Of a DNA stretch of 64,000 nt, positions 5,247 through 64,000 are shown piece after piece. Every line of letters begins with the position of its first letter. The first letter of the stretch is position 1. Source of the DNA: Eledone cirrhosa (lineage: Eukaryota). The position numbers and the translations under genes were made by a program. The notes beneath the pieces were generated by a model. The model made no database searches, was not told where the DNA came from, and saw only the letters and a list, made by a program, of their open reading frames with translations. Where the stretch lies: the NCBI GenBank assembly GCA_964016885.1, contig OZ024746.1, positions 36,270,001 through 36,334,000 on the forward strand, given 5' to 3'.

Positions 5247-5466
5247 GGATTAATATCTAGTAACATATATATACAGCAAACCACTTTCCACTGATTGACC
5301 TCGATGTCACTTGATTGATTCTTTTTGAATTCACCACAGACGCAGAGGCAGTGATTTTCTCAATGGCTAGGAATTCAGTCCACGCTTTGCTATTTCCTAT
5401 CCACTGAATTATTTTTTAATATGTTTCTAGAGTCCTCGCTTTGCCTGGAAACTTAGCTGAGAATAG

Positions 5467-5548
5467 GCTTCCCTGACGACGGAATGTTTCTACATATCTT
5501 CTTCGGAAAATATATTTACTCCATTTCAGAAACTAATTAGTTGGAAGT
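5467..5548 (+). ncRNA. Type I hammerhead ribozyme (repeat unit 1)
   Basis: GCTTCC-CTGACGA-C-GGAATG..CATTTC-A-GAAA-CTAATTAG-TT-GGAAGT. Confidence 0.8.
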
Positions 5549-5988
5549 GATATTTTAGTAAGTAAGTTAATTTTATAATTTTCTTATTTTACGTCTCTCA
5601 TATTATTGTTCTGCAACCCCATGCATTGAACCACTATGTTACTAAGACAAAACCTATATATTTGCTAGCATTGATATGCATCTGTATGTATATATATGTT
5701 ACGAGATATTAATTCTTTATAATTATCTCCAAATTATGTGTCGAGCAATATTGGCCATGGCTGCTGCTATGGTAGTAGGCAGGCCGCTGTCTTATTAGCA
5801 AACCACTTTCCACTGATTGACCTCGATGTCACGTGATTGATTCTTTTTGAATTCGCCACAGACGCAGAGGCAGTGATTTTCTCAATGGATAGGATTTCAG
5901 TCCACGCTTTGCTATTTCCTATCAACTGAATTATTTTTTAATAAGTTTCCAGAGTCCTCGCTTTGACTGGAAACTTAGCTGAGAATAG

Positions 5989-6070
5989 ACTTCCCTGACG
6001 ACGGAATGTTTCTATATATCTTCTTCGGAAAATATATTTACTCCATTCCAGAAACTAATTAGTTGGAAGT
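5989..6070 (+). ncRNA. Type I hammerhead ribozyme (repeat unit 2)
   Basis: ACTTCC-CTGACGA-C-GGAATG..CATTCC-A-GAAA-CTAATTAG-TT-GGAAGT. Perfect 6-bp stems I and II. Confidence 0.85.
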
Positions 6071-6141
6071 GATGTTTTAGTAAGTAAGTTCATTTTATAA
6101 TTATCTTATTTTACGTCTCTCATATATATATATATATATAC

Positions 6142-26766: not shown

Positions 26767-29700
26767 TTACAGATATATACTCAGAGTCGGCCCATTCACT
26801 CGGGCCATTCTTGCTTCTCTCACCCATCTTTCAACAAAATGCTGGGAAGAGAGCACTTCCTTCTCTACTCTGATTTTCCTTTTCAAATGAAATTTGAAAA
26901 AGTCAATCAGAGCATCACCGAAGAGGTAAGTACTCGTCTTCAGCCCTTTCAAACGTGTCCACCATACTATCTCTTTCGCCATGGCCACCAGACAGATAAA
27001 AACTGCCTGCCCTTCCCGGCTAAAGGAGGAGGGCGGGGCAATCCTCACGATAGACTCAGATGATAGCTGGATCCGTCCTAAACGCGACAGCAGGTGTTCG
27101 ACATAAACCCACAAGTCAGCAATTTTCGGACACTGGACGAGTGCGTGCAGGACGGTTTCGTCGCCCTGCGCGCATCTCGGACATGCCCGGCTGACGGCAC
27201 CTCCATGCCTGTAGAGTTTATCCCGAACTGGCAAGGCTCCTCGGTAGCACTGCCAGGCCAGAGATTTCTGGAAGTTGTCCATAGGCCCTGGCCCGAAAGT
27301 TCTCCCGAAGAGATTGGCTAGTTGATTTTCGTCGACGCCTAGAGTTTCCCCAAGTACGTCGTCGCTCTTCCCCTCCACTAATCCTCTATAGAACGCCGAG
27401 GTGGAGTTTCCACCGATCACATTGCCCGATTGGTCGAGGGCTGTGAGCGCCTGAAGACATTCCAGTCTCCAGGCGCTCCCTCTCGGTCTTCGCTTGACCC
27501 AGGACTGCAGCTCCGTCAAGGAAACGAGCTGGGGAAAAACGCGTCTAGCAAACGGCGACCACACCTGATCACCGTCGAGGAAGAGGTGGAGATGTCGTAG
27601 CCTGAGCGCGTGCCTGCGCATCATCAGCCACGGCATGCCCAGCCCTCCACGTAGCGGGTGTTGACAACAGATGGACCGCCTGACCATCGGAGCACGTCCC
27701 TTCCACAAAAAGCGAAAGAGCAAACGCTCCAGCGCAGTCAGGCGAGGCTTAGGACAAGGTACGATGGTTAGGCGGTAGCAGATGACAGACGCGATGTACG
27801 CGTTAGCCACCTCCGCTCGACCTTTCAGGGATAGCTTCCTCTCCGCCCATTTCTGGGTGAGAGAAGCCACCCTGCTCGTCACCTCGTCCCAGTTTTTGTC
27901 CGTCTGGAGGTCCGGACCGAACCAGACCCCTAGCAATTTAACCGGTCCGTCCGTCCAGCGCCCGACGACGCTGTTGGACGGCATGGACCTGCCTCTCCAG
28001 GTGCCGAGCTGCAGGCCCACTGACTTTTCCTGGTTGATCATTGCTCCTGTCACCGCTTCGTATTCTCTTAGTGTAGTGCCGATCGCCTCGATGTGTTTGG
28101 CGTTCGACACCACTACGGTGATATCGTCCGCATATGCTGACACGGATCTTCCGCATCCTAGTTCGCGCGGGACTCCCCTCAACGTCTCCAGTTTGTGCAG
28201 TAATGGCTCGAGAGTCAATACGTACAAGAGGGACGAGAGGGGACATCCTTGGCGGACCGAGCGCATGATGTTGAACGGTTCCGACAGGTGACCGTTCACT
28301 CTCACTACAGAGCAGATGTCGCTGTGCATGGCAGCGATCCAGCCTCTGAAGACGGGCCCAAAGCCAGCCGCCCTCAGGACTGCCGCTAGGTAACGATGGT
28401 CGACCCTATCGAAAGCTTTCGACTGATCTAAATTGATCAAGGACCCACCCGTGCCAGGTTCCCTAGCTACCCTCTCTACGATGTATCGCATGAGGTGGAG
28501 GTTGTCGTGGATGGATCTGTCGGGAATGGCGCATGTCTGCGCCTCTCCCACCAGACCACCAACGACAAGCGCCAACCTCTTTGCTAGCACCTTGGCCAAA
28601 ATCTTAAACTCTGTGTTTAGCAGAGTTATGGGCCGGAAATTGTCTATGTTATCCCCCTTGTTCGCATCCTTTCTCAGCAGTGCCACCGCTCCTCGGCTCA
28701 CAGAACTGGGAATTCTCCCGTTCTGTTGCCAGTTGCAGTAGACGTCCGCCAAGAGGCCTCCGAACAAGTCTGGCATCTGTACGTAAAGTTCATAGGGCAG
28801 ACCATCCAAACCAGGCGATTTACCCCTTGTGCAGCCAGTCATTGCCTCCCGTACTTCAGCGGCTGTTATCGGCTTTTCGCAACACTTCGCCTCAGTGGCC
28901 GAGAGCCGCGGCAGTCCGTCGAGGTAGACACTAAAGTCCATCCCTCTACCCGGCCCCCCGCTGCCCCCGAACAGCTGAGCGAAGTGTCGCTGAAAAGCTT
29001 CACACATTTGCCCGGGATCGAGTAGCATGCGCCCGTCGTGGTCCACCAAAGACCGGATCGTGGCTTTGTTGCCACGACGCGCCTCCGCCACTCGGGCCCA
29101 TTGAACGGCTTTCGTCCCCTCGTGTCTGAGAGCACGCACCCTAGCTCTGACAACGCAGCCTTCGTGCTTTGCATTGAAGAATTGCTCAAGGGCCAATTTC
29201 GCCGCAAGCACGTCGGTCGCAATGCCTTTGCTAAGCGCCTCGTCTAATTTTCTAACTAGTTCTCCCTCTGCTCTATTTTTCTCTATTGCTAAAGCCTTAC
29301 TAAACCTAATCGATTCTATTCTAATCGCTCTTTTCAGAGCAAACCACCACTTGTTGTTGACGATGGCCCCCGTCAACGCCCGCTTAACTAGTTCGCTAAT
29401 CCGGTCTCTGTAGGCCTTGCGCGCTGGTAATGACGCGTTTAGCTTCCAGTAGCCGGGTCCTCGTCTATGAAGCCTATCTAAGTCAAGCACACAGGTCACG
29501 AATTTGTGGTCCGTGTAGCTGACTATCTTGAATTGTGGACAGCCTATGCTAGACCTATCTATTTCCCTACAAAATACTCTATCTAGATATGATCTGGATG
29601 ACCCTATGCGGTTTGTCCAAGTCCACATTGGCACATTCGGGAAATCCAATCGGTACCTGTCAGACAGTTCAAAACGCCTGAGCAGGTTGGTGAGGCTCTT

Positions 29701-30186
29701 GCACCCTCCACTCCTATCCGCTAATCCCACACAGTCCCAGCGTGCATCTAAGATCCCGTTCCAGTCGCCCACTAACACTAAAGAGCGGGACGTTCCAAGA
29801 AAGGTCTCCAGACGCCGGAAGAAATCAGGCCGCCCTGCTCCTGTCGGGGCATAGACGGCCACTAGCCTGAAAGCTTGCCCGTCTCCGCTGGTCACGTCCA
29901 GCACCACCAGCTTACCCTCTGGGTCCAGGAAGATGGCCCGTATGGCGAGATCCAAACCTCTCCGAAAAAGCACAGCAACTCCTCCACCCGATCCAGGACG
30001 GCTGGGAGATGCGTACACATCGTAGCCGCCGAAGATCGGTGCGAAGGCCCGTGCTTCGGAGATTCTGGTCTCGCTGATGGCCACTACATCTATGTTTAGT
30101 GACCTGAGGTCGTTGAGCAGGTGACCCTGCTTCCATGACGACCCCAAGCCACGCGCATTTATGCTGCCTATTCTGAGTGAGGTCAT
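26767..30186 (-). CDS. ORF2p, 1139 aa: APE endonuclease, reverse transcriptase, C-terminal CCHC
   Basis: SINARGL, SETR, VYAP, GDWN, YLDR, TDH; KSPGLDG, NFRPITLLN, DQSKAFDRVDH, VRQGCPLS, YADD; CPRC..ETVLHALVQC. Uninterrupted ATG-start ORF. Confidence 0.95.
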   Translation of the reverse strand: MTSLRIGSINARGLGSSWKQGHLLNDLRSLNIDVVAISETRISEARAFAPIFGGYDVYASPSRPGSGGGVAVLFRRGLDLAIRAIFLDPEGKLVVLDVTSGDGQAFRLVAVYAPTGAGRPDFFRRLETFLGTSRSLVLVGDWNGILDARWDCVGLADRSGGCKSLTNLLRRFELSDRYRLDFPNVPMWTWTNRIGSSRSYLDRVFCREIDRSSIGCPQFKIVSYTDHKFVTCVLDLDRLHRRGPGYWKLNASLPARKAYRDRISELVKRALTGAIVNNKWWFALKRAIRIESIRFSKALAIEKNRAEGELVRKLDEALSKGIATDVLAAKLALEQFFNAKHEGCVVRARVRALRHEGTKAVQWARVAEARRGNKATIRSLVDHDGRMLLDPGQMCEAFQRHFAQLFGGSGGPGRGMDFSVYLDGLPRLSATEAKCCEKPITAAEVREAMTGCTRGKSPGLDGLPYELYVQMPDLFGGLLADVYCNWQQNGRIPSSVSRGAVALLRKDANKGDNIDNFRPITLLNTEFKILAKVLAKRLALVVGGLVGEAQTCAIPDRSIHDNLHLMRYIVERVAREPGTGGSLINLDQSKAFDRVDHRYLAAVLRAAGFGPVFRGWIAAMHSDICSVVRVNGHLSEPFNIMRSVRQGCPLSSLLYVLTLEPLLHKLETLRGVPRELGCGRSVSAYADDITVVVSNAKHIEAIGTTLREYEAVTGAMINQEKSVGLQLGTWRGRSMPSNSVVGRWTDGPVKLLGVWFGPDLQTDKNWDEVTSRVASLTQKWAERKLSLKGRAEVANAYIASVICYRLTIVPCPKPRLTALERLLFRFLWKGRAPMVRRSICCQHPLRGGLGMPWLMMRRHALRLRHLHLFLDGDQVWSPFARRVFPQLVSLTELQSWVKRRPRGSAWRLECLQALTALDQSGNVIGGNSTSAFYRGLVEGKSDDVLGETLGVDENQLANLFGRTFGPGPMDNFQKSLAWQCYRGALPVRDKLYRHGGAVSRACPRCAQGDETVLHALVQCPKIADLWVYVEHLLSRLGRIQLSSESIVRIAPPSSFSREGQAVFICLVAMAKEIVWWTRLKGLKTSTYLFGDALIDFFKFHLKRKIRVEKEVLSSQHFVERWVREARMARVNGPTLSIYL

Positions 30187-30221
30187 GTTTAAAATAGAGT
30201 GGAAAAGATGGGAAAGACCAC

Positions 30222-32318
30222 TTACCGTACTTTTGGTAGAGGAGGGATGGTTTTTACATCCCTTTTCACTTGATCGTCTGGTGAAGGGACCGTTGAATCG
30301 TCCCTTCGGCTGGTCGTCGGCTCTTCTAAGAGAATGTCTGAGTATACTCTTCGATTGATGGTTCCTCCTAGGTCCCTGAAATCACCAACTGCGTTGGGGA
30401 ATTTCGTTTTAATGTTTGTGTATTGTTTCTGTGCTATTTTTAGCAGTCTTATGTTAGTTGGCGTTTTGATTGGTGCTGGTATTATGTAGTCCTGTTGTGA
30501 AATGTCTGTGTGTTCAATTATGTAAGTCATTAGTTTCTTGTTGTGTGTATTTATTGCCGTGCATTTGTTTTTCTGGGGGTGGGGTGTGGTTCTGCTATTT
30601 TCTTGTCGTTGTTGCTGGGTGTGTGTGTTTTGTTGTTGTGTTTGCGACGTTGGTGCTTGTGGTGGTGGTGTTGAAGGTGTTGTTGGCGGTGGGGTTGTCG
30701 CCGGTGGTGATGGTGGTGCTAGTGTGGGTGGTGATGGTGTTGGTGTTGTTGCTGCTGTGGGTCTCTTTGCAGTAGACTTTACCCTATTCTCATTTCTTTC
30801 CTCCCTTTTCAAAGGCGACGATGCGCTGCTTCTGCGTTTGTGCCTTCTTGCGACCTTTTGCCATCCCTCTCCCACCTCACACTCCATGTCTGATTCTGTG
30901 AGGTCGGGGAGGGGTACCAGCTCCACTCATTCACTTGTTGTTGTTGGTGATGTTTGCACTGGAGTCTCTGTTGCAGCTGCATTTGGTATTGCTGTTGTTG
31001 TTGTTAATATTTCCACTGCTGCTGCTGTTTTTGATTTCCGCGGCGTGGGTATGGGTGCCACGGACCTATCGTTCCTGGTTGCCGCTTGTCCTGTTGCTGG
31101 TAGCCGTGGAGCCGGATTCGGAAGGAGGGGGGTTTTCTCCTTTCTCAGGGTCTTCTCGTTGCAGAAGGCCCTGAGGTGAGTCTTCGATCCACAGCGAAAG
31201 CATTTCGGGCGTTTGCCCTCAACACTTATGGGCAGTTGAGTGCCGTTATCGAAGTCTATCACATCCGGGATAGCTTCGATGCACTCCTGGTTGGTTTGGA
31301 TTAGCTTCTCAATGGAGGAGCCGACCCAATCTTCTCTTACTTTTTTCTGTACTTGCAGTACAGTTGTTTTGTCCTCGATTCCGACGAGGACAGACGCGGC
31401 CAGCCAAGAAGGGGTCATTCCGGGGGGGACGTGGGTCAGTTTGACCCTCACAATTTTTTGCCCGCAGTAGGAGGGCACCAACACCATTTCCTCGCTCCTT
31501 AGGGTCACTACTGATTGGGCCTTTGCCTCCTGGGGTGAGGCAAAAAGTACGTCTACGGTGGCATATTTTTTGCCTCGGGTGATGTGCGTTTTCCGCTGCC
31601 ACACAGACCCCAAGGCTTTTTGTATTTGGGCCTCTGTGGCTCTTTCCACCCTACGGGATTTTGTACTTACTGTACGGTACGTGACCGTACAGTGCTCTTG
31701 GGTCTCGAAAAACTTTTCCGCTGCCTTGCAGATTGCTCGGTGTCCGTTCTTTGTCACCATCTTCTTCGCTTCCTCTAATTCCTCATTTGTTATGAGGATT
31801 GTTTCCAAGTTTTTCGCAATACCTGCAAATGAGATTAGTTTTTCTCTGCTGTTGTTGTTGTCGTCAGAGCTGCTGGTACTTTTGTTGTTGCTGCAGGTAC
31901 TACCACTACTGCCTCCGCCGCTGTTGCTGTGGTTGTTGTTGGTGTTGCTGCTGCTAATGCTGTTGTTGTTTATGTTGCTGGTGATGCTGTTGCGGCTGCT
32001 ACTGTTGTTTTCATTGTCACTGTTGCTGTTGTTATTACGGCTGCTACTGCTATTATTCCTGACGTCAGACGAATGAACTGGGTTTTCGTATTTCCCGCAC
32101 ACCTGTTTCGTCGCTGTCGTCGTCGTCGTGGAGAAACCTTGCACGCTTTGCACGAGACTTTTCTTTTCTTTCGTCACTTGCGAAAGAGAAGGGAGGGAGA
32201 GAGACACATTTAAAGAAGGGAGGGAGAGAGACAATCTTCTCTCTGCTGTAGTGATGATTGAGGAAGAAGAAGACGGAATGAGTGGGAGTGACGTATGAAA
32301 TTTCTTTTTCGTAGCCAT
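30222..32318 (-). CDS. ORF1p (gag-like, zinc knuckle) with a single in-frame TGA at 30927-30929
   Basis: ATG at 32318 (MATKKKF). CFRCGSKTHLRAFC knuckle. ORFs 30927-32354 and 30222-30926 abut in the same frame. Confidence 0.8.
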
Positions 32319-32559
32319 GTTGTTTTTTTGTTTAAAATGAAATTTTGGGTACAAAACCCCAATAACTGGTTATTTAACCCCGAAGGGCCAAATAACGGAC
32401 AGAAAGACCCCTCTCACGAGGAGGAGGGTGTCTTTATCAACAATTTGGTTCAAGTTTTAAACAATTTACAATTGTTTTAACGGTTAAAAATGACTATACC
32501 TTACAGAGCCGAGCCTCCGTCAACCATGGCATTCAATAATAATAATAATAATAATAATA

Positions 32560-35130
32560 AAATACAAAACTAGGAGGAAAATGCTAAATATTATCATAGA
32601 GGAACTGAAGCAACGCATTGTAGCAAAGAGTGCAAAAATCAGGCGATACGAGAACAGAGTCAGTCAGTATAAACAGAACCGCATGTTCTACAACAACCAG
32701 AAGATGCTGTTTGGACAGCTTGAGGGGAAAGAAAGAGGCAACGACTTGATCCCTGGGGCGGAGCAAACTAAAACATTCTGGAGAGGAATATGGGAGCAGG
32801 ATGTTAGACATAATGTCCAGGCAGGGTGGATTGAGACAGTACAGAGGGAGATCGGTGAGCAGGCACAACAACAAACTGATTTGAGTATCACAGTTGAAAC
32901 TCTTAAGGGGCAGGCCAAAAAACTAACCAACTGGAAATCACCAGGCCCAGATGGTGTGCAGGGGTATTGGATGAAACATTTAACATCCCTCCACCCGAAG
33001 CTGACGGCCATGTTCAATGACTGCTTGGTGTCGGGTGAGGTGCCAGAGTGGTTGACAAAAGGTACCACAGTTCTGATAATGAAAGACCGAATCAAGGGTA
33101 ATGATGTTACCAACTATAGACCTATAACGTGTCTGTCCGTAATGTGGAAACTGTTGACGAGCATTGTGTCTGAGGAAATCTACCATCACCTTGTTACCGG
33201 ACGAACAGAAAGGATGCCGAAAGAAGTCACGTGGTACAAAGGACCAGTTGCTTATTGATAAGATGGTAATGGGGAATTGCAGGAGGAGACACACTGATCT
33301 TGCTATGGGATGGATAGACTACAGAAAGGCATTTGACATGGTGCCTCATTCCTGGATCACCAAAAGCCTGGAGGTCTTCAGGGTGGCAGATAACATCAGA
33401 CAGTTGCTGGGCAGGAGTATGGGGTCCTGGGAGACAGAGTTGACATCAACTGGAGTATCCTTGGGAAGCGTGAAGATCAAGAGAGGTATCTTCCAGGGAG
33501 ATAGCCTGTCCCCTCTGTTGTTTGTCCTTGCCCTGATGCCCTTGACCATTATGCTGCGAAAAGTGAGAGCAGGATACAAGTTGGGAAGGGGAGAGCTTAC
33601 CATCAATCACCTCCTCTTCATGGACGATCTTAAGCTCTTCGGGAAAAGTGAGAAGGAGTTGGATGTGCTTGATGACACTGTCCGTATTTTCAGCAGTGAT
33701 ATATGTATGCAGTTTGGTATTGGTAAATGTGGAGTCATTGTGATGAAGAGGGGTAGGTTGAGCAGAAGTAACGGGATCCAGATACCAACAGGTGAGATGA
33801 TAAAGGAAATTGACTCTGAGGAAGGATACAAGTATTTGGGCGTTCTGGAGGCTGATGGCATAAAGAACAAAAAAATGAAGGAATTGTTAAGAACTGAATA
33901 CATTCGGAGAGTAAGGAGCGTATTGAAGTCACATCTGAACAGCAGAAATGCCATAAGCGCAGTAAATTCCCGAGCTGTGTCTATTATTAGGTACAGTGCG
34001 GGAATTCTGAGATGGAATGTTGCTGAAAAAAAGAAATGGATAGGAAGTCTGGGAAGCTATTGACTATCTACAACATGTTCCACAAGAGGAGTGACGTCGA
34101 TAGACTCTACCTAAGGAGATGTGAGGGTGGAAGAGGTCTTATCAGAATAGAGGACTGTGTTCAGATGGAGAAAAACAACCTACACACATACGTGACTGAT
34201 AGTAAGGAGCCAATGCTCAGAACTGTACTGAAGGAGGGGACAATAGGCCAGGGGATGTCCAAGGAGGAAATAACATCAAGGAGAAAGAGCAGCCTTCAGG
34301 AAAAATCCCTTCATAGTACCTTCTTTGAGAAAACTGAATTTAGAGTTCCACAGACATGGAACTGGTTGAGAAGAGGAGACCTTAAAAAGGCTACAGAAGG
34401 AATGTTAATGACTGCGCAGGGGCAGGCCCTCAAAACGAAGTGGTTGAAACACCGTATTTACAAGGAGGAGGCTAGCCCACTGTGCAGGATCTGTGGAGAG
34501 AGAGAGGAGACTGTGGCTCACATTGTATACGAGTGTAAACACCTAGCCCAGACCCACTATAAGGGCTGGAGACATGATGTGATGGGCAGGGTGATCCACT
34601 GGCACCTGTGCAAAGAAAAACAATTCACCACATTCTGAGAAATGGTATGAGCATAAGCCAGAGGCGGTGATGGAGAACGATCATGTGAAGGTGCTGTGGC
34701 ATTTTAGGATACAGACGGACAAGAAACTGGAACACAATAGACCTGACCTGGTGGTTGTGGACAAAGAAAAAAGATCGTGCCTGATTGTGGATGTGGCCTG
34801 CCCGTTCGACACGAGAGTGCAAGAGAAGGAGAGGGAGAAAATTAACCGATACCAGGACCTAAAGTGGGAGGTGAAAAGGATTTGGAACTGCCATGAAGTC
34901 AAAGTGATCCCGATTGTCATAGGCACACTGGGGACTATCTCCAAAGGTTTCCAGGGATGGTTAAAGAAAATCGGCCCCTTCACGCTTTTTGGAACGCTTC
35001 AAAAGGCATGCTTGCTTGGAACAGCAAGAACCCTCCGATACGTCCTGAATATCTGAGGCTGCATGTAGTGGCTTGATATTCAATCCAACGGACTTTCCAG
35101 TTAACCAACATCAATGACTGAGATTCAAGG
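32560..35130 (+). mobile_element. 5'-truncated, frameshifted R4/Dong-like non-LTR element (RT, CCHC, RLE endonuclease)
   Basis: [45 protein letters not shown]; CRICGEREETVAHIVYEC; RHD; RPDLVVVD..DVACP..KINRYQDL. (AAT)n tail. Confidence 0.9.
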
Positions 35131-35446
35131 AATAACAATAACAATAATAATAATAATAATAATGATTTCATTTATTAGCCACAAGGGCCGACATGTAGGG
35201 GACAATACAAAGACAGGGACAGTGGGGGCTTACAATAAGGTCGAGTAAAAGTGCACAATGGCAAGACTAATTTAACAATGAAAATATAAAATATAAAATA
35301 TAAAATAAACTATGCAAAATATAACAAAATATATTCCCCGATAGGGGGTCGACGACCCTGGGGTGATTCGGGTACCCCACCAATCCTGAACCACCCTGCG
35401 CTTCTAGGGCACCAAGGAGCGCACCCCATTCCTCAAGTTAGCTAGC

Positions 35447-38400
35447 CTATAGGCGCATGGTCAGAGTAGGCCCATTCACACGAGCCATTCTCGCCACATT
35501 CACCCACCTTTTAGCAAATGTACGGGGGGAAGCACTTCTCTCTCCACCCTCACCCTCCTTTCCAGGTGAAACTTGAAGAAGTTGATGAGGGATTGGCCGA
35601 AGAGAAAAGTGTCTGTCTTTAGTCCTTTCAACCTGGTCCACCATATAATCTCTTTCGCAACTGCCACCAGACAGAGGAAAATGTCCTGCTCTTCCTGACC
35701 TAAGGAAGGTGGCGGCTCGATCGTCACTATGGACTCGGCCGATAACTGGATTCGTTCCACACGCGACAGTAGCTGTTCGACATAACTCCACAAGTCAGTA
35801 ATGCACGGACATTGGACAAGTGCGTGCAGAACGTCGTTCTGTGCGCATCTTGGGCAGGTCCGTCTGACAGCACTTCCGTGCCTGTAGAGTTTATCCCGAA
35901 CCGGCAGTGCCCCCAGTAGCATTGCCAAGCGAGGGATTTCTGGATATTGTCCATCGTCCCCGGCTCAATAGTCCTCCGGTACAGACTGGTCAGTTCGACT
36001 TCGTCGAGGCCCAAAGCTTCTCCGAGTGCGTCATCGCACTTGCCCACCACTAATCCTCTATAGAACTCGAGAGTGGAAGTTACACTGATCGCATTGCCCG
36101 CTTGGTAGAGGGCAGTGAGTGAAGGCAACATTCCAGGTGCCAGTCACCCAGTCTCGGTCTCTTCTTGAACCAGGACTGCAGCTCAGTCAAAGAAATGAGC
36201 TGCGGAAAGGCCCGTCTGATAAACGGCGACCACACCTGTTCACCATTGAGGCAGAATATCTGGAGATATCGCTGCTTCAACGCATGTCTGCGCATCATTA
36301 GCCACGGCATGTCCAGCCCTCCGCGTAGAGGGTGCTGGCAGCAGATGGACCGCCTCACCAACGGAACTTGTCCCCTCCACAAGAATTTGAAGAGGAGCCG
36401 TTCCAACTTGACGAGGCGCGGACGGGGGCAAGGCACGACGGTTAGGCGGTAATAGATGACGGACGCGATGTACGCATTCGCCACCTCCGCGCGACCTTTC
36501 AGTGATAGCTTCCACCCAGCCCACTTTTGGGTGAGACTGGCTACTCTGCTCGTTACCTCGTCCCAATTCTTTTCCACCTGGAGGTCTGGTCCGAACCAAA
36601 CCCCGAGCAACTTTACTGGTCCGTCCGTCCAGCGCCCCACGACGCTGTTGGACGGCATGGGCTTGCCTCTCCAGGTTCCGAGCTGCAAGCCCACCGACTT
36701 TTCCGGGTTTAGTTTGGCTCCTGTCAACCTTTCATATTCCTTCAATAAGGTGCCGACCACCTCGATTTCTGAGGTGTTCGACACCATCACGGTGATGTCG
36801 TCCGCATAAGCCGACACCGCATTTCCACGTCCCGGTTCGAGCGGGATGCCCTGCAACAGCTCCAGCTTCCGCAGTAAAGGCTCGAGAGTCAATACGTACA
36901 GAAGGGAAGAGAGAGGGCACCCTTGACGAACCGATCGGGAGAGCGGAAATGGTTCCGAGAGGTGGCCATTAACCTTGACCACCGAGCGTGTGCCGCTGTG
37001 CATTGCAACGATCCAGCTTCTAAAGACAGGGCCGAAGCCAGCTGCTTTGAGGACAAACTCCAGATACCGATGGTCGACCCTATCGAATGCTTTCGATTGA
37101 TCTAAATTGATCAGTGCCCCACCGAAGCCAGGTTTACAACCTACCCTCTCTATGATGTATCGCATGAGGTGGAGATTGTCGTGTATGGACCTGGCTGGGA
37201 TTGCGCAAGTTTGCGCCTCCCCAACCAAATCCTCGACGACAAGCGCCAATCTCTTTGCTACCACCTTGGCCAAAATCTTAAACTCTGTGTTGAGCAGAGT
37301 TATGGGCCTGAAGTTGTCTAATGTATCCCTCTTGTTCTCGTCTTTCCTTATCAGCGTCACCACTCCCCTGCTCACAGAACTGGGAATACTCCCATTATGC
37401 TGCCAGTTACAGTAGAGTGATTCGAGGAGTTCGGAGAACAAGTCTGGCATATTTACGTAAAGCTCGTAGGGCAGGCCATCCAAGCCGGGTGACTTGCGCC
37501 TCATACAGCCGACAAGGGCGTCCTGAATTTCGGCTGAAGTAATCGGCCTTTCGCAGCGCTCAGCGTCAACCGTCGAGATGCGCGGCAAGCCGTCAAGGTA
37601 GGGACTGAAATCCGCTACTCTCTCTGACTCGCCACTCTCCCTGAACAACCGAGCAAAGTGCTGGCGAAAGGCCTCACACATCCGCTTGGAATCGCTTATC
37701 TCGTGTCCGTCTCGGTCCGCCAAAGACCGAATTGTGGTTTTATTACCACGTTGCGCCTCCGCCACGCGGGCCCATCGAACAGCTTTAGTTCCCTCGTTTC
37801 TCAGCGCACGCGCCTTAGCTCTGACAATGCAACCTTCGTGTTTGGCATTGAAGAAATGGTCTAATGCCATTCTCGCCGCTAGCACGTCAGTTGCGATGCC
37901 ACTACAAATAGCCTCGTCTAACTTATCTACCAGCTCCCCCTCCTTTCTATTTTTCTCTAACGCTAGTTCTTTGCTGAACTCTATCGAAGTTACTCTAATC
38001 TCTCTTTTGAGAGCCCCCCACCATCTGTTGTTGATGATCCCCCCTGTCAACTTGTGCTTAACTAACTTATTGACTCGGTCCCTGTAAGCCTTACGTGCCG
38101 GAAATGACATGTTCAGCTTCCAGTAACCAGGTCCTAACCTACGCGTTTTATTTAGGTCGACCGTACAGATCACAAATTTGTGATCTGAATAGGCGACCGT
38201 TTTAAAAAGTGGACAGCCCACACTATTTCTATCTATTTTCCTAATGAAGATTCTGTCTATATACGATCTAGATGACCCCATTCGGTTGGTTCATGTCCAT
38301 ACTGGCACATTGGGGAAATCTAGTCGATACCTGTCAGACAGTTGGAACTGGCTGAGTAGGTGCTTGAGGCTTTTGCACCCCCCGCTCCTATCGGCTACTC

Positions 38401-45157: not shown

Positions 45158-45580
45158 TAGGAGGTGAGTTTTATTGTAGTACAATAAAGCAATGCAGATA
45201 TCGGATAAGAAGCACTCTACAGTTTGTAGGACTGGAGTATACATAATATATAAGATCAAAAGATGGTTAAAGGAGTTCCATGTATTTTATTATGCGCATT
45301 TCAAAAACAAACATCATCATGCAATAATATTTGTGTTTTCATCAGATAAAACAGGAGAACATGATATGAAGGCTAAAAAACACTTGTGGGTAGTGCAGTT
45401 TTAAATCAACATATCATATTATGTTGATTTAAAACTGCACTATCCACAAGTGTTTTTTAGCCTTCATATCATGTTCTCCTGTTTTATCTGATGAAAACAC
45501 AAATATTATTGCATGATGATGTTTGTTTTTGAAATGCGCATAATAAAATACATGGAACTCCTTTAACCATCTTTTGATCT

Positions 45581-45590
<10 letters not shown>
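45156..45590. mobile_element. PLE family B terminus with near-perfect fold-back
   Basis: Arms 45243-45413 and 45420-45590. Homologous to 16478-16733. Confidence 0.85.
45482..45548 (+). ncRNA. Type I hammerhead; mirror copy at 45285-45351 on the minus strand
   Basis: TTTTAT-CTGATGA-long stem II-GAAA-TGCGCA-TA-ATAAAA. Perfect 6-bp stem I, palindromic stem III. Confidence 0.8.
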
Positions 45591-45634
<44 letters not shown>

Positions 45635-48430: not shown

Positions 48431-49395
48431 TGAAATTTCCGTTGGAAACAGAAAAGGTCATGGAAATGAAGAGTGTTCTATGTAAGTATCAGAGCAAAAT
48501 TTAATGTATAAAAATCAATACAATATAATTACCTCATTACCAGAGGTTTCCCGAATGAGGCGAATACGAAATAAACGACTTCATTCGTTCGTCAGACGAG
48601 GCAATATAAAACATGGGTAAATACTTAGAAAAACTCATCAAGAAAATCAAAAAAAGATATAGATAAATGAAATAGAAATTGAAATATATAAAAATCTATC
48701 AAGAAATATAGTTAGGTGTGTGTACATGTATGTGTATACGCTCACAGATGTGCATATGTGTATATGCGCACATGTATATGTATAGTGAGAAAGTGTGCGT
48801 ATTTCTAAAATTTAGGGCAACTGTATCTATATGTCTGTAATATACAGACAGAAATGGTTACATCATAAATATATGAATATGAAGGCGCGCGCATAAAACG
48901 CCTGCACACTCGTACACTTAGATGCGGAAAGAAAGGAGTTAAGGGAGTGTAATAATTAAAAGAAAAGTATCAGTCTCGATATATTTATAAAAATATAATA
49001 ACGATAAATTAGAAAGAAAAATATATTTTTAGAAAGAAAAAATTAAAGAAAAGAAGATAAAAAAGGGGTACATACATACACAGACACGCATGTCTCACAA
49101 AAGAAATGTAAGAATAATTATGCTTATATACACACGCGCACTTACACATCCATACGTTCGATACGTCCATACACACACACACACACACATACTTATACTC
49201 ACGCATATAAACCTGTTTGCATCCCCACGCATGAAATTGAGTAAGTAAAAAAGGGGAAAGGGGGGGGGGAGAAGAAAAAAGGAACAAAACATAAAACCGA
49301 GATGTCAAAAACACGGATATAAAGACATGTACACATACGCATAATATATACATACACACACACACAATCACACGTACACACACATATATATACAC

Positions 49396-49456
<61 letters not shown>

Positions 49457-49859
49457 CATACACGCACGCGCGCGCACATACGTAGTCACTCATGTACATA
49501 TATAAAAAAGTATACACACATAGAGGCGTTCAGCCATATTGATACAGGGTGTAAAAACTTGTGGATAAATAAGTACAAATATAAAATTGTAAGATAGGCT
49601 GCGCAAAAATAAAATTAAAATAAGAATAAAAATGAAAATGAAAAATATATCTGGATGGAAAAACACAAAAGACATGTGTAATCAGTTAGTGGAGGAAAAA
49701 GGGAAGTAAAAGAAGGGGAAGTAAAAAATAGAAAGTGAATCGGAGAATAAGGGGGGGGGGATGTGAAGTAAAAATAAAAGTAAAAATAAATGAAATTATT
49801 GACAAGGATAAAAATGAAAGTAAGTCAGAAAGGGTAATTAAAAAGAGAATAATAAGAGT

Positions 49860-51182
49860 TTATGGAGGATAAGTATCTGAAAGTGTGTTAAGTTTATATG
49901 AGCTGGAAAGCAGATGTGATTTCATGTGTGGGCAACTGGTGAAAATTCCCGTCTTTGTGTTCAGGTAGGTCTTTGGTGATTTTAGATTTTGCAATATCCA
50001 AAATTTTTCATTTATGCAGAGCGTGCATTTTCTTGTTCCTCTAGCATATTTTTTAGATTGGTTCAAAATTGACCAATCTAGTTTATATTGGATGCCTTGG
50101 TCTTTCAAATCCCAAATTCTGCTAGCCAGTGCTGTTGTAAATCTTTTTTTCTGGATGTCGAAAGGATGCGACATGTGAGTAATAACGCGTTTTGAATCTG
50201 TCTTGCGTCATACCCACATATCGTTCACTGGTGGCTGGATGGTTGTTGCTGATGGCTGTCACATTAGCCGCATATACAATGGCTTTGGTGTTGCATTTAC
50301 CTTGTAATGGGCATTCACTTTTGATTCTACAGGAGCAAGTTTGATTTTCTCTAGGTGATATTTTGTTGAGGATATAGGACTTAATAGGGGGACCGCAAGA
50401 ATAGCTAATTTTAACACATTTTCTGTTAAAGATCTTATAGTATCTATGTGTTCTAGGGAAATGTTTATCTAAGATTTCTAGGAATTGTTTGCCTACATTA
50501 GTTTTAACTGCTAGAGAGTAGGGAGGTGTGAACCAGATTATTTTTCTTTTCCTATTTTTATCTTTAATAGAGTTAGTGTTGTTAGGTATGTATTTAATCG
50601 GTTCGCTAAAGCCGCTATTTTGGAGGGCTTTATTATAGTAGGGGGATGCCTTATTAAAAATAGCTTCTGAGGAAGAGAGGGTGGAGATCCTACGGCTAAT
50701 ATTAGGGATAAGGTTTTTAAAAACTATAGGTGGATGGCAAGATCCTTTATTTATATATTTTAAGTTTTCATTAGGTTTATGGTATGGTTTATAAGAAGCA
50801 GTAGGCACATCTAGGTTTATATCTAGGAAATCTACGTTGGAAAGGTTAGTGTCAATAGTAATTTTAAGATTAAAACTAGCGAAGGTTTTTATTAAGTCTT
50901 TCCTTAATCTATCTAAGTTATGTCCTATGGTGGTATGGGAAAGTATTAGACCATCATCTCGATAAAGCCCCAAAATATGGTTAGGAAATTTTTCTTTAAG
51001 TGTATGTAAGAGGAATAGACCGACCAGATCACAAACCTCGGCACTGTCATAAGAGCCCATAGAGACATCGAATGGGTTCTCTGGGTTAGATATTTTTACC
51101 CAAGTGTCATTATCATTAAAAAGTAGAGTGTTCCTAGCATGCAAGATGACATTCTCTTCAATATCGGAGATATTAGTGAACC
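49860..51182 (-). pseudogene. PLE RT (YRDD) plus GIY-YIG, left arm, frameshift near 50145
   Basis: FDVSMGSYDSAEV, GLYRDDGL, DFLDI, IIWFTPPYS, CSCRIKSECPLQGKC, IVYAA..YVGMT..FKTRYYSH. Confidence 0.9.
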
Positions 51183-51185
51183 TAT

Positions 51186-52622
51186 TGGTTTAATAATATT
51201 AAAAACAAAATCAGTTCTAGATTCACCCAATTTGACATTGTAGATTTCTACCCATCTATTACACAGACCCTTTTAGTGAAAGCTTTAAATTTCGCTAGAG
51301 GGTTCACTAATATCTCCGATATTGAAGAGAATGTCATCTTGCATGCTAGGAACACTCTACTTTTTAATGATAATGACACTTGGGTAAAAATATCTAACCC
51401 AGAGAACCCATTCGATGTCTCTATGGGCTCTTATGACAGTGCCGAGGTTTGTGATCTGGTCGGCCTATTCCTCTTACATACACTTAAAGAAAAATTTCCT
51501 AACTATATTTTTGGGCTTTATCGCGATGATGGTCTAATACTTTCCCATACCACCATAGGCCATAACTTAGATAGATTAAGGAAAGACTTAATAAAAACCT
51601 TCGCTAGTTTTAATCTTAAAATTACTATTGACACTAACCTTTCCAACGTAGATTTCCTAGATATAAACCTAGATTTGCCTACTGCTTCTTATAAACCATA
51701 CCATAAACCTAATGAAAACTTAAAATATATAAATAAAGGATCTTGCCATCCACCTATAGTTTTTAAAAACCTTATCCCTAATATTAGCCGTAGGATCTCC
51801 ACCCTCTCTTCCTCAGAAGCTATTTTTAATAAGGCATCCCCCTACTATAATAAAGCCCTCCAAAATAGCGGCTTTAGCGAACCGATTAAATACATACATA
51901 ACTACACTAACTCTATTAAACATAAAAATAGGAATAGAAAAATAATCTGGTTCACACACCCCTACTCTCTAGCAGTTAAAACTAATGTAGGCAAACAATT
52001 CCTAGAACTCCTAGATAAACATTTCCCTTGAACACATAGATACTATAAGATCTTTAACAGAAACTGTGTTAAAATTAGCTATTCCTGCGGTCCCCCTATT
52101 AAGTCCTATATCCTCAAAAAAATATCACCTAGAGAAAATCAAACTTGCTCCTGTAGAATCAAAAGTGAATGCCCATTACAAGGTAAATGCAACACCAAAG
52201 CCATTGTATATGCGGCTAATGTGACAACCATCAGCAACAACCATCCAGCCACCAGTGAACGATATGTGGGTATGACGCAAGACAGATTCAAAACGCGTTA
52301 TTACTCACATGTCGCATCCTTTCGACATCCAGAAAAAAAATTTACAACAGCTCTGGCTAGCAGAATTTGGGATTTGAAAGACCAAGGCATCCAATATAAA
52401 CTAGATTGGTCAATTTTGAACCAATCCAAAAAATATGCTAGAGGAACAAGAAAATTCACGCTCTGCATAAATGAAAAATTTTGGATATTGCAAAATCTAA
52501 AATCACCAAAGACCTGCCTGAACACAAAGACGGAAATTTTCACCAGTTGCCCACACATGAAATCACACCTGCTTTCCAGCTCATATAAACTTAACACACT
52601 TTCAGACACTTATCCTCCATAA
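51186..52622 (+). pseudogene. PLE RT plus GIY-YIG, right arm, nonsense at 52029
   Basis: Starts WFNNIKNKISSRFTQFDIVDFYPSI. TGA at 52029 corresponds to AGA in the left arm. Confidence 0.9.
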
Positions 52623-53013
52623 ACTCTTATTATTCTCTTTTTAATTACCCTTTCTGACTTACTTTCATTTTTATCCTTGTCAATAATTTCATTTATTTTT
52701 ACTTTTACTTCACCCCGCCCCCCTTTATTCTCCGATTCACTTTCTATTTTTTACTTCCCCTTCTTTTACTTCCCTTTTTCCTCCACTAACTGATTATACA
52801 TGTCTTTTGTGTTTTTCAATCCAGATATATTTTTCATTTTCATTTTTATTTTAATTTTAATTTTATTTTTGCGCAGCCTATCTTACAATTTTATATTTGT
52901 ACTTATTTATCCACAAGTTTTTACACCCTGTATCAATATGGCTGAATGGCTTAATGTGTGTATACTTTTTATATATGTACATGAGTGACTACGTATGTGC
53001 GCGCGCGTGCGTG

Positions 53014-53066
<53 letters not shown>

Positions 53067-53854
53067 ATATATATGTGTGTGTACGTGTGTTTGTGTGTGT
53101 ATGTATATATTATGCGTATGTGTACGTGTCTTTATATCCGTGTTTTTGACATCTCGGTTTTATGTTTTGTTCCTTTTTTCTTCTCCCCCCCCCCCCTCCT
53201 CCTTTCCCTCTTTTTGCTTACTCAGTTTCATGCGTGGGCATGCAAACAGGTTTATATGCGTGAGTATAAGTATGTGGGTGTGTGTGTGTGTATGGACGTA
53301 TCGAACGTATGGATGTGTAAGTGCGCGTGTGTATATAAGCATAATTATTCTTACATTTCTTTTGTGAGACATGCGTGTCTGTGTATGTATGTACCCCTTT
53401 TTTGCCTTCTTTTCCTTAATTTTTTCTTTCTGAAAATATTTTTTCTTTCTAATTTATCGTTATTATATTTTTATAAATATATCGAGACTGATACTTTTCT
53501 TTTAATTATTACACTCCCTTACCTCCTTTCTTTCCGCATCTAAGTGTACGAGTGTGCAGGCGTTTTATGCGCGCGCCTTCATATTCATATATTTATGATG
53601 TAACCATTTCTGTCTGTATATTACAGACATATAGATACATTGCCCCAAATTTTAGAAATACGCACACTTTTTCACTATACATATACATGTGCGCATATAC
53701 ATATATGCACATCTGTGAGCCTATACACATACATATACACACACCTAACTATATTTCTTGATAGATTTTTATATATTTCAATTTCTATTTCATTTATCTA
53801 TATCTTTTTTTGATTTTCTTGATGAGTTTTTCTAAGTATTTACCCATGTTTTAT

Positions 53855-53932
53855 ATTGCCTCGTCTGACGAACGAATGAAGTCGTTTATTTCGTATTCGC
53901 CTCATTCGGGAAACCTCTGGTAATGAGGTAAT
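53855..53932 (+). ncRNA. Canonical type I hammerhead; mirror copy at 48528-48605 on the minus strand
   Basis: ATTGCCTCGT-CTGACGA-A-CGAATGA..TCATTCG-G-GAAA-CC tct GG-TA-ATGAGGTAAT. 10-bp stem I, GUA site. Confidence 0.88.
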
Positions 53933-53954
53933 TATATTGTATTGATTTTTATAC

Positions 53955-54031
<77 letters not shown>

Positions 54032-58095: not shown

Positions 58096-58122
<27 letters not shown>

Positions 58123-58126
<4 letters not shown>

Positions 58127-59647
58127 AAAGACGTAAAATAGGAAAATAAAAAAAAAAATTAAAAAAATTAACTTACTAGAATGTTCACTCCAACTAATTA
58201 CTTTCTGCAATGGGATAAAGACAGTTACGTAATGAACTGTTGAGAATTTCATTGCGTCATCAGGGAGGTCTATCCTCAGCCAAGTCTGTAAGCAATGCGC
58301 TGAAACTGGGGACTCATATAAAAATAATAATAATTCGGTAAATGGAACAGCTATCGGGGACTCGATTCTAAGTACTGAAAATCTCGCTGCCACTGGTCAA
58401 ATGGCCGATTCTAAAGAATCAATCACGTGACACTGAGGCTAGTCGGTAGGAATGGGATGGTAAGATGACAGACGCCTACTAACACACCAAAAATTTAGTA
58501 GTTGTTTTGGCAGGTTTGCTCGACAAATCAGTGATTTGGAGATAAATATAGATCATTTAATATATCTACTAACATAAGCGCACAGATGTACGCTAATGCC
58601 AGCAAATACACAGGTTATGTCATAGTACCTAGGTGGTTCAATGCAGGAGGATGCAGAACAATAATATAAAAGACGTAAAATAAGAAAATTAAAAAAAAAT
58701 TTTTTTTAAATTAACTTACTAAAATTTTCACTCCAACTAATTAGTTTCTGCAATGGGATAAAGACAATTACGTAATGAACTTTTGAGAATTTCATTGCGT
58801 CATCAGGGAGGTCTATTCTCAGCCAAGTCTCCAGGCAATGCGCGGACAATGGGGACTCATATAAAAATAATAATAATTCGGTAAATGGAACAGCTATCGG
58901 GGACTGGATTCTAAGTACTGAAAATCTCGCTGCCACTGGTCAAATGGCCGATTCTAAAGAATCAATCACGTGACACTGAGGCTAGTCGGTAGGAGTGGGA
59001 TGGTAAGATGACAGACGCCTACTAACACACCAACAATTTAGTAGTGGTTTTGGCAGGTTTGCTCGACAAATCAGTGATTTGGAGATAAATATAGATAATT
59101 TAATATATCTACTAACATAAGCGCACAGATGTACGCTAATGCCAGCAAATACACAGGTTATGTCATAGTACCTAGGTGGTTCAATGCAGGAGGATGCAGA
59201 ACAATAATATAAAAGACGTAAAATAAGAAAATTTAAAAAAAATTTAAAAAAATTAACTTACTAAAATTTTCACTCCAACTAATTAGTTTCTGCAATGGGA
59301 TAAAGAGAGTTACGTAATGAACTGTTGAGAATTTCATTGCGTCATCAGGGAGGTTTATTCTCAGCCAAGTCTCCAGGCAAAGCGCGGACACTGATGACGC
59401 AATGAAATTCTCAACAGTTCATTACGTATCTGTCTTTATCCCATTGCAGAAACAAATTAGTTAGAGTGAAAATTTTAGTAAGTTAATTTAAAAAAAATGT
59501 TTTTTAAATTTTCTTATTTTACGTCTTTTATATTATTGTTCTGCATCCTCCTGCATTAAACCACCTAGGTAGTATGACATAACCTGTGTATTTGCTGGCA
59601 TTAGCGTACATCTGTGCGCTTATGTTAGTAGATATATTAAATTATCT
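58123..59647 (-). repeat. 542/543-bp tandem repeat (~2.3 units) plus inverted partial unit; retrozyme-like
   Basis: TATAAAAGACGTAAAATA at ~58123, 58665 and 59208. Inverted copy at 59391-59647. One HHR per unit. Confidence 0.9.
58731..58810 (-). ncRNA. Type I hammerhead; further copies at 58188-58267 and 59273-59352
   Basis: CTCC-CTGATGA-C-GCAATG..CATTGC-A-GAAA-CTAATTAG-TT-GGAG. Confidence 0.85.
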
Positions 59648-59648
59648 A

Positions 59649-59727
<79 letters not shown>

Positions 59728-62035: not shown

Positions 62036-62037
<2 letters not shown>

Positions 62038-62891
62038 TCATTTAATTTATTGATTTATTGATATTTTATTTGAGTGACCCGAATCTTCCTGGTCGTTCTT
62101 TTTCGGCTGTACGCGTGATTTTAGGCATGACCTCTATGTGTTGGTATTTTAACGATAGTTATAGCTCTGATTTATTCAGATTATTGAGCCCTCTGCCACA
62201 CATATCGGATAATGTTTATCGTTAATTCGTAAGCTGTTTTTTCCGATTCTCGATTATTCTACTATATTTAGCTCTAGACCTTAGCTATTGACCAGTTAAT
62301 TTTATTGATTATTTTTTGTCGATCTTATTGACTGATGAATAGCTCCTGTTTATTTTAACACGTCTGTTGAGCACTCTGATTCGATATGTGATATTTTGTA
62401 TCCTTACATGATTTGCACATCACCGACATTTTTCGCTAATGTAGAGGTTATCTCCCTTGCTGGGTACCATGTGCGTTTCTGGCTAAGGGTCTTCTATTCA
62501 TTGTCGGACGGAATTCCCGTTGAGAAAGCTCTTCCTCGTCCCCCCTTCTCTAGAAGTCTGATATATTTTTTATGTGGGCTGATAGTGATTGGAATAAGGA
62601 ATTGCAGAAACCCAAGAAGCTAGATTTAACTTCCTTCTAGCGGGTCCGGGTGAGTTTTTTACATTCATATAATTTTTTGATTTATTGATATTTTATTTGA
62701 GTGACCCGAATCTTCCTGGTCGTTCTTTTTTGGCTGTACGGGTGATTTTAGGCATGACCTCTATGTGTTGGTATTTTAACGATAGTTATAGCTCTGATTT
62801 ATCCAAATTATTGAGCCCTCTGCCACACACATCGGATATTGTTTATCGTTAATTCGTAAGCTGTTTTTCCGATCCTCGATTATTCTACTAT
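62036..62891. repeat. 627-bp tandem repeat (~1.35 units) bounded by (TA)n
   Basis: GAGTGACCCGAATCTTCCTGGTCG at 62072 and 62699. Confidence 0.85.
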
Positions 62892-62898
62892 ATATGTT

Positions 62899-62954
<56 letters not shown>

Positions 62955-63001
62955 GGAGAGTATTGAAGTTTGCTTGAAGCATTGTGGAATAATAAGATAT
63001 C

Positions 63002-63206
63002 TTTTCTTTAGGTCGTTTTCGAAGCCTTATCAATGCAGATGGGTAATTCTCCGGTAACAAGATCCGGTGGTGAAGAGAGATATATAAGTGAATGTAGAAT
63101 GGATCTCATTCTACATTCACTTACATCTCTCTCTTCACCACCGGATCTTGTTACCGGAGAATTAACCATCTGCATTGTTGAGGCTTCCAAAACGACGTAA
63201 AGAAAA
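63002..63206. repeat. Fold-back hairpin, ~100-bp arms, 5-nt spacer
   Basis: ..AATGTAGAATG-gatct-CATTCTACATT.. Confidence 0.88.
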
Positions 63207-63223
63207 TTTATATTTATATATAT

Positions 63224-63253
<30 letters not shown>

Positions 63254-63254
<1 letters not shown>

Positions 63255-64000
63255 AATGAAAGTTAGAGTTAATAACTCTTACTTAAACCCTGTAATCAGT
63301 AAGCTCAAAGTATAAATACCGAGCATTATAATAATAATATATATGTAGTAAGAAAGACAGTAAATCGTGTGTCTAATATTAATAGGGTTGAAAGACCACA
63401 TTTGTTTGAAATATTTAACCATGAAGCAGACAGAATTGTAAAATAAAATAAAATTATATTATACAAACCGCCTCAATAACAATTATATCTCTCGGACAGA
63501 TTAATCTGTTTCGCCCTGAGTGTGTTTGCAACAGATAATCCATGGGCATCATCAGCGAGAGAATCTGATTAAATGCGACAAACACCTAGTACCAACGTTC
63601 ACACAGAAAAAATTAATTCATCACCTCGTGTGCCGTAAGTCAAAAGTGGTATGAGTGTATTGGGTAGAAAGAACAGTCCAACTCACGCAAATTAATAAGC
63701 TCACCTCTTGAGGGAGCCGACATATAAATGAAAGTTAGAGTTATTAACTCTTACGGAAACCCTGTAATCAGTAAGCTCAAAGTATAAATACCGAGCATTA
63801 TAATAATAATATATATGTAGTAAGAAAGACAGTAAATCGTGTGTCTAATATTACTAGGGTTGAAAGACCACATTTGTTTGAAATATTTAACCATGAAGCA
63901 GACAGAATGATAAAATAAAATAAAATTATATTATACAAACCGCCTCAATAACAATTATATCTCTCGGAGAGATTAATCTGTTTCGCCCTGAGTGTGTTTG
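63254..64000 (-). repeat. 472-bp tandem repeat with HHR (retrozyme-like), runs off the window
   Basis: AAATGAAAGTTAGAGTT at 63254 and 63726. Confidence 0.88.
63488..63562 (-). ncRNA. Canonical type I hammerhead, GUC site
   Basis: TCTCTCG-CTGATGA-T-GCCC..GGGC-GAAA-CAGATTAATCTG-TC-CGAGAGA. 7-bp stem I, palindromic stem III. Confidence 0.92.

Follow-up and report, generated by a model that had tools for sequence, protein, structure and literature searches.

A candidate animal non-LTR retrozyme with hammerhead motifs inserted at (TA)n tracts in the genome of Eledone cirrhosa

The window analyzed here is the whole 64,000-nt stretch at positions 36270001-36334000 (forward strand) of contig OZ024746.1 in the Eledone cirrhosa assembly GCA_964016885.1, a 3.0-Gb, AT-rich genome. 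At its right-hand edge lies a repeat with a spacing of 472 nt (63250/63255-63726, then 63727-64000), which the original prediction had described as a non-coding 472-bp tandem repeat that starts at a (TA)n tract and as an unrelated, independent second retrozyme candidate. This description was borne out in all its parts. Beyond the window end the repeat goes on for another 360 nt, up to a further (TA)n tract, and the extended locus (L013) contains 2.34 units (472+472+161 nt) bounded by (TA)n tracts on both sides; the longest ATG ORF in positions 1200-7000 of L013 (the repeat plus 4.6 kb beyond it) has 75 aa, and sequence comparison revealed no relation of the 472-nt unit to other repeats of the window. 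The features are as follows (positions of the window unless L013 is named; numbers above 64000 lie outside it).

62952..63216, no strand: neighbor outside the unit, a short two-armed remnant, end of Penelope-like element (PLE) family B, 83-86% identical to L169
63209..63254, no strand: left (TA)n tract, putative target
63250..63254, minus strand: fixed end B (distal), where the arm begins, putative start of reverse transcription (104 exact (TA)n-end matches)
63255..63726, minus strand: unit 1, 472 nt, non-coding (L013 1255-1726, 100% identity)
63320..63346, minus strand: fixed end A (proximal, TA/TAA-rich), start of the opposite arm in two-armed copies (54/59 second arms)
63488..63562, minus strand: type I hammerhead motif 1, predicted cut 63495/63494
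63556-63562/63488-63494, minus strand: stem I, TCTCTCG/CGAGAGA, 7 bp
63549-63555, minus strand: core CTGATGA
63544-63547/63513-63516, minus strand: stem II, GCCC/GGGC
63517..63543, minus strand: loop II, 27 nt, kept across subfamilies, complementary to the upstream element
63496..63509, minus strand: palindromic stem III, ACAGATTAATCTGT, a loop-less derived form with a 7-nt loop deletion between TAATC repeats
63567..63585, minus strand: conserved upstream element, predicted partner of loop II (masking hairpin or pseudoknot)
63727..64000, on to 64198 outside the window, minus strand: unit 2 (L013 1727-2198, 95.3% identity)
63960..64000, minus strand: 3' half of hammerhead motif 2, in which G>C at 63969 breaks the first stem III pair
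up to 64359, outside the window, minus strand: unit 3, partial, 161 nt (L013 2199-2359, 96.3% identity)

The 7-bp stem I, GCCC/GGGC stem II and 14-nt palindromic stem III that had been predicted on the minus strand were all found at 63488-63562, with GAAA after GGGC, followed by stem III and GUC, and with an extra U (T in the DNA) between positions 9 and 10.1, a nucleotide reported to be typical of PLE hammerheads (PMC4209133; here and below, published work is cited for the available portions of its text). The core and the three stems occur in both units 1 and 2, with one stem III pair broken in unit 2. The motif had been called a textbook GUC hammerhead: the core, the stems and the GUC are present, and the pattern of core plus stem II has 451 exact matches genome-wide (including a younger sister subfamily) versus 0 for the reversed control, but the word textbook goes too far (Rfam yielded no hammerhead at E<=1 across the window nor at E<=10 locally, the isolated motif folds like its shuffles with a z of -0.2, and the hammerhead is not the minimum-energy fold). 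The 5' half of the ribozyme in the form of this locus has 237 exact genome matches and the full palindromic form 5, with 0 for the reversed control in both cases. A change of GUC to CUC in unit 2 had also been noted; it is present at 63969 and is private decay, G being retained in 34 of the 35 other full units. With a stem III pair broken in its upstream ribozyme, the window copy is probably unable to liberate its own monomer with any efficiency.

The three units of the locus differ from each other by about equal amounts (4-5% pairwise divergence) and have at least 11 subfamily alleles in common. Units 1 and 2 are distinguished by 22 positions, the change of GUC to CUC among them, at which the family allele is present in only one of the two and the allele in its partner occurs in at most 1 of the 35 other full units. 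The locus is a partly decayed, ageing copy of a dispersed repeat, and it is one unusually long single arm from site B of a dispersed family, not a local satellite. The 22 differences are mostly transversions; the spectrum of the family is more even.

BLAST searches yielded 1822 candidates for the unit, and among the 40 scored, full-length matches were 89-96% identical. These belong to a dispersed, multicopy family that shares its genome with PLEs, with a unit length of 472-477 nt and a GC content of 35%. A phylogenetic tree of 112 insertions took the form of a ladder of successive subfamilies, and multi-unit arms were common in the younger sister subfamily. Stem III was scored in 165 ribozyme copies from 124 insertions, a sample enriched for palindromes, in which 87 copies showed a loop ATCCCT, 61 the inverted loop AGGGAT, 12 the loop-less palindrome, and 5 other states; none of the 124 insertions mixed the states. 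Stem III is thus mostly a 7-8 bp hairpin with a loop of 6-7 nt (looped in 148/165 copies). In a tree of a 58-row subset the inverted loop formed one clade (support 97), and a single clade of palindromes was rejected in the same subset (AU p 6e-9). The original prediction had proposed that the palindrome could fold in cis or pair between adjacent units, and a weighty role for it in dimerization is not supported: the palindrome is not monophyletic and therefore reflects recurrent deletion, not a design of the family, and at the sequence level it is a minority form produced by a recurrent 7-nt loop deletion, which still folds in cis. Fold prediction gave most pairs of the looped stem III a probability of at least 0.8, and the loop-less form 5 bp in cis at a probability of ~0.4; an obligate dimeric hammerhead would have a stem III too weak within one motif, unlike that of this family. 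The loop was inverted once (from ATCCCT to AGGGAT; seen in L043, L036, L090 and the younger subfamily), and from the inverted-loop lineage came the youngest subfamily, whose arms reach 5.5 units (L267).

To compare the ribozyme with the rest of the unit, five subfamily consensuses were set against the main one. Core and stems were variable at 1/46 positions versus 158/431 elsewhere (Fisher p 9e-8, a contrast inflated by indel runs), and the only change in core or stems retains a G-U pair. Loop II together with the 19-nt element upstream of stem I was variable at 5/46 versus 153/385 positions (p 7e-5). The upstream element and loop II can pair with each other at -18.4 kcal/mol, and 4 of 2000 shuffles reached an energy as low. 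In four circular monomers folded with ViennaRNA, the upstream–loop II hairpin had a probability of 0.76-0.995 and stem II at most 0.23; the same hairpin dominated in 5/5 transcript prefixes folded, and the best fold containing the hammerhead lay 0-3 kcal/mol above the minimum. The subfamily consensuses contained no two-sided compensatory change in this pairing. The circular consensus monomer folded more stably than its shuffles (z -3.9; 0/60 shuffles as low), and folding was strand-specific (-117.7 kcal/mol versus -93.9 for the antisense). The conserved pairing is therefore predicted from the folding models to tune, mask or brace the ribozyme core, and to keep the ribozyme off in most folds; a partial pairing could be an activating pseudoknot instead, because ViennaRNA cannot model pseudoknots. 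Two other candidates were dropped: a CAGAU/AUCUG pairing between the flank of stem I and loop II, because CAGAU varies between subfamilies, and a hairpin just beyond site B, which is not conserved.

The layout of the insertions was studied in loci in which (TA)n is joined to site B. There are 104 such genome matches, 100 of them listed. The 83 loci analyzed are those among the 100 that remain once 4 tandem duplicates from a single locus and 13 loci obtained by score-ranked searches, the window among them, are set aside; since all of these 13 have arms of at least 433 nt, arm lengths in the 83 are biased short. Two inverted arms, back to back, were present in 59 of the 83 loci. The second arm started at site A (unit positions 66-92) in 54 of the 59, at site B in none, and elsewhere in 5, sites A and B being ~80 nt apart; 44/54 A ends were in contact with (TA)n versus a background of 11%. 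Single arms ended in (TA)n in 11/24 cases. The outer ends are thus fixed at two sites and flanked by (TA)n, and the inner ends are ragged. The junctions between arms overlapped by at least 2 nt in 34/59 and were never blunt, as delimited by BLAST, an estimate that is crude since BLAST overruns ends. The layout is of the PLE type (partial tandem, inverted truncated arm, a tail at one end only, AT-rich target).

The median length of the B arm was 219 nt, and 11/83 B arms were longer than one unit; the arm in the window measures 1110 nt. Of the B arms, 37 extend as far as the cut site and 33 of these run more than 10 nt past it, and the template was therefore either a circle or an uncut multimer. 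Whether arm ends accumulate at the cut was also examined, and the idea was rejected (only 1/83 B arms ended within 3 nt of it); 4 B arms stop 3-7 nt before it, two of these directly at a (TA)n run. Only 2/83 loci contain two cut sites within one arm. In 17/83 loci, site A (unit 71-92) has itself been hit by an element that we take to be SINE-like, often as an inverted pair (L005, L009, L136, L195).

Whether the arms of an insertion were copied from a single template was addressed with private alleles, i.e., alleles found in no other insertion, in 173 distinct insertions. The two arms of an insertion shared 0.72 private alleles per kb (11 in 15,316 bases) and successive passes of one arm 1.3 per kb (16 in 12,206, with multi-unit loci counted repeatedly), compared to a baseline of 0.021 per kb between loci, or 0.098 when the comparison is with the nearest other locus; the shared private alleles came from 14 insertions. 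Discordance at family-polymorphic sites was 2.1% and 1.2% within insertions versus 14.3% between them. Within-insertion pairs were closer to each other than to the nearest other insertion in only 22/63 cases, which is a weak test, and the three units of the window have no shared allele unique to the locus. The sharing of private alleles could also stem from unsampled source loci or gene conversion. Scars of A-to-I editing were not seen among the shared private alleles (only 2/22 are of that type). Note that a plain search for back-junctions cannot prove a circle, because a genomic tandem yields an identical junction.

PLEs co-exist with this family in the genome: three of their families gave 23,828, 51,737 and 10,113 first-look candidates, which are not copy numbers. 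Family A, with 23,828 of these, has intact RT and GIY-YIG ORFs (900 aa), and a 5'-truncated copy of this very young family occupies positions 719-2351 of the window; a motif scan detected no canonical hammerhead in it. From their motifs we take families A and B to be Poseidon-like and family C to be Neptune-like. In the ORF-bearing families A and B, too, insertions combine the two types of fixed end, which in these families are separated by ~40 nt and lie at (TA)n. The unit showed no sequence similarity to families A, B and C and does not have the RT plus GIY-YIG ORF between pLTRs that defines an autonomous PLE. Adjoining the repeat, tblastn next to the locus detected no PLE ORF attached to it (the nearest PLE protein fragment lies 4.3 kb off on the far side of the repeat), and a normal ORF-pLTR junction was present in 0/173 insertions, so that the locus keeps its standing as a retrozyme candidate, as originally predicted.

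A link to one of these families comes from a hybrid insertion (L272; G000:C1:339131501+), in which, at 567-1894, an arm of the sister subfamily starting at site A runs gapless into the 3' UTR/GIY-YIG end of family B, while the arm facing it consists of the distal end of family B itself. The sequence of L272 fits a template switch within one insertion in which the rule of one end of each type is kept; a deletion between two neighbors in one TA tract is a possible alternative. The junction has 1 genome match and was not amplified. Family B also lies just outside 4/173 insertions, and its remnant at 62952-63216 sits between TA tracts directly to the left of the repeat. We tentatively regard PLE family B (L169 type) as the helper, an assignment that may well prove wrong. 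A second apparent hybrid, L030 with family A, was discarded, being really a short family A insertion that abuts by its outer end.

Taken together, the locus is probably a single-armed copy of an animal non-LTR retrozyme, likely inserted in trans by a PLE RT/GIY-YIG protein. In such an insertion the PLE protein would cut both strands of the (TA)n tract, the two DNA ends would serve as primers for reverse transcription that starts internally in the RNA, at site A from one end and at site B from the other, and the two cDNAs would join at short overlaps, or one would join the far (TA)n, as may have happened at the window locus. The most likely template, in our opinion with a slight lean, is a unit-length circle, which could arise by two hammerhead cuts in RNA of rare multi-unit source loci, and otherwise an uncut multimer. 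The same element and helper with an uncut linear multimer from tandem source loci as template, the ribozyme being mostly off and no circle being formed, is less probable. In its favor, hammerhead mutants leave PLE insertion in vitro unaffected and the RNA used is mainly uncut (PMC11167929), the ribozyme core is predicted to be masked, and 0/83 B arms pass a second cut site (the 5 longest stop at 642-675 nt, below 722). However, other arms do pass at least two (L147, L165, L013, L027, L099, L202, and the sister locus L267 with six), the units within an arm share private alleles, stem III states are never mixed in the 124 insertions, and one subfamily after another has kept the ribozyme strongly conserved. 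One elaboration of the circle reading, which we think doubtful as a whole, is a gated ribozyme parasite in which pairing of the upstream element with loop II would keep the hammerhead off in nascent and circular RNA until a Penelope protein binds, the protein of family B then copying one circle into both strands of the cut TA repeat from two starts, with the ability to switch between its own RNA and that of the retrozyme in a single insertion.

Concerning the window copy itself, the 2.34 units might have been produced by local tandem duplication after a shorter (~1.3-unit) PLE-type insertion, which would explain why its arm far exceeds the median and why the alleles common to its three units are all subfamily alleles, the differences among them being private, and such a process has occurred at L184 (G000:C12:46691002-46691960), where five head-to-tail copies of a complete 195-nt two-armed insertion form a minisatellite derived from one insertion. 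This is improbable, though, given that the units are equally diverged, as for one event, that the far end falls at a junction hot spot (unit 157-167) of several ordinary arms, and that multi-unit arms are so common in the sister subfamily. The units might also be normal pLTR tandems left by an autonomous PLE whose 5' truncation removed the ORF, and three PLE families among many were compared; this reading is very improbable, given that arms longer than one unit always enter the next unit and never an ORF, and that a normal ORF-pLTR junction is absent from all 173 insertions. A chance hammerhead-like motif in a DNA-level repeat (satellite or MITE) would account for the lack of an Rfam match and for the unremarkable isolated fold, and can scarcely be reconciled with the selective conservation of core and stems, the strand-specific folding, and outer ends that are fixed while inner ends are ragged.

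The family resembles animal non-LTR retrozymes (PMC7229834; 10.64898/2026.07.22.740005) at the sequence level: the tandem units are non-coding and low in GC (35%), each has one type I hammerhead, copies are dispersed, PLEs co-exist in the genome, and the monomer is predicted to be self-paired. It differs from them, according to the same sources, in several respects: the unit is slightly longer than the typical 150-450 bp, stem III is a stable hairpin of 7-8 bp versus 1-2 bp (loop II having 27 nt here), and copies are mostly shorter than one unit, two-armed and with fixed ends, a two-fixed-end structure not being reported in the available text of either source. No pLTR homologue was found here in three PLE families, in contrast to 21 PLE matches among Xenopus families (10.64898/2026.07.22.740005). 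In these studies, mobilization of animal retrozymes by PLEs and a circle intermediate are proposed, not demonstrated.

With PLEs and pLTR hammerheads (PMC4209133, PMC8557442, PMC11167929) the family shares partial tandems, an inverted 5'-truncated arm, an optional 'tail' between fixed ends, microsatellite targets and the extra nucleotide at 9/10.1; a preference for microsatellites and copies arranged in tandem or inverted are established characteristics of PLEs (PMC8557442). In vitro, both strands are cut and extended by a PLE protein, which starts at two internal RNA sites that bound a genomic 'tail' (PMC11167929), and the two-end layout of the present family matches this. Unlike PLEs, the unit has no RT or GIY-YIG ORF and its tail is ~80 nt versus 30-40. 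Both start sites are TA-rich here, whereas the anole element starts at sites non-homologous to the target; microhomology with the target is therefore possible in this family.

A pseudoknot that braces stems I and II is predicted in roughly 40% of hammerheads (PMC3088659), and loop II here is similarly complementary to the 5' flank of stem I, but the complementarity comprises ~17 pairs, and its complete formation is predicted to leave no room for stem II, which means that it could inhibit rather than activate the ribozyme. Retrozyme dimers of Xenopus lacked in vitro cleavage in 8/9 cases (10.64898/2026.07.22.740005), and the predicted switch might account for the conservation of many ribozymes of this sort despite their poor cleavage in vitro. 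The kind of element is already known; new are the conserved upstream–loop II pairing and the single hybrid insertion that points to a PLE family as helper. A literature search retrieved no description of this family or of the upstream–loop II pairing in the available texts (the supplements of 10.64898/2026.07.22.740005 and PMC7229834 may list related units). The family supplies exact coordinates for two start sites, the target, a candidate helper and the predicted switch.

Other repeats were noted in the window. At 58122-59655 a 543-nt repeat of ~2.4 units plus an inverted arm, unrelated in sequence, is two-armed and has a compact CTGATGA...GAAA core in each unit; at 5275-6125 there is a TA-flanked 522-nt repeat with hammerhead-like cores, at 62036-62893 a TA-flanked 627-nt repeat in which a hammerhead-like core was not found, and at 45238-45595 a TA-flanked perfect inverted pair with a hammerhead-like motif per arm. 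The window also contains a 5.5-kb nested inverted repeat without Pfam matches (48499-53961) and several LINE-type RT/APE ORFs (26767-38290).
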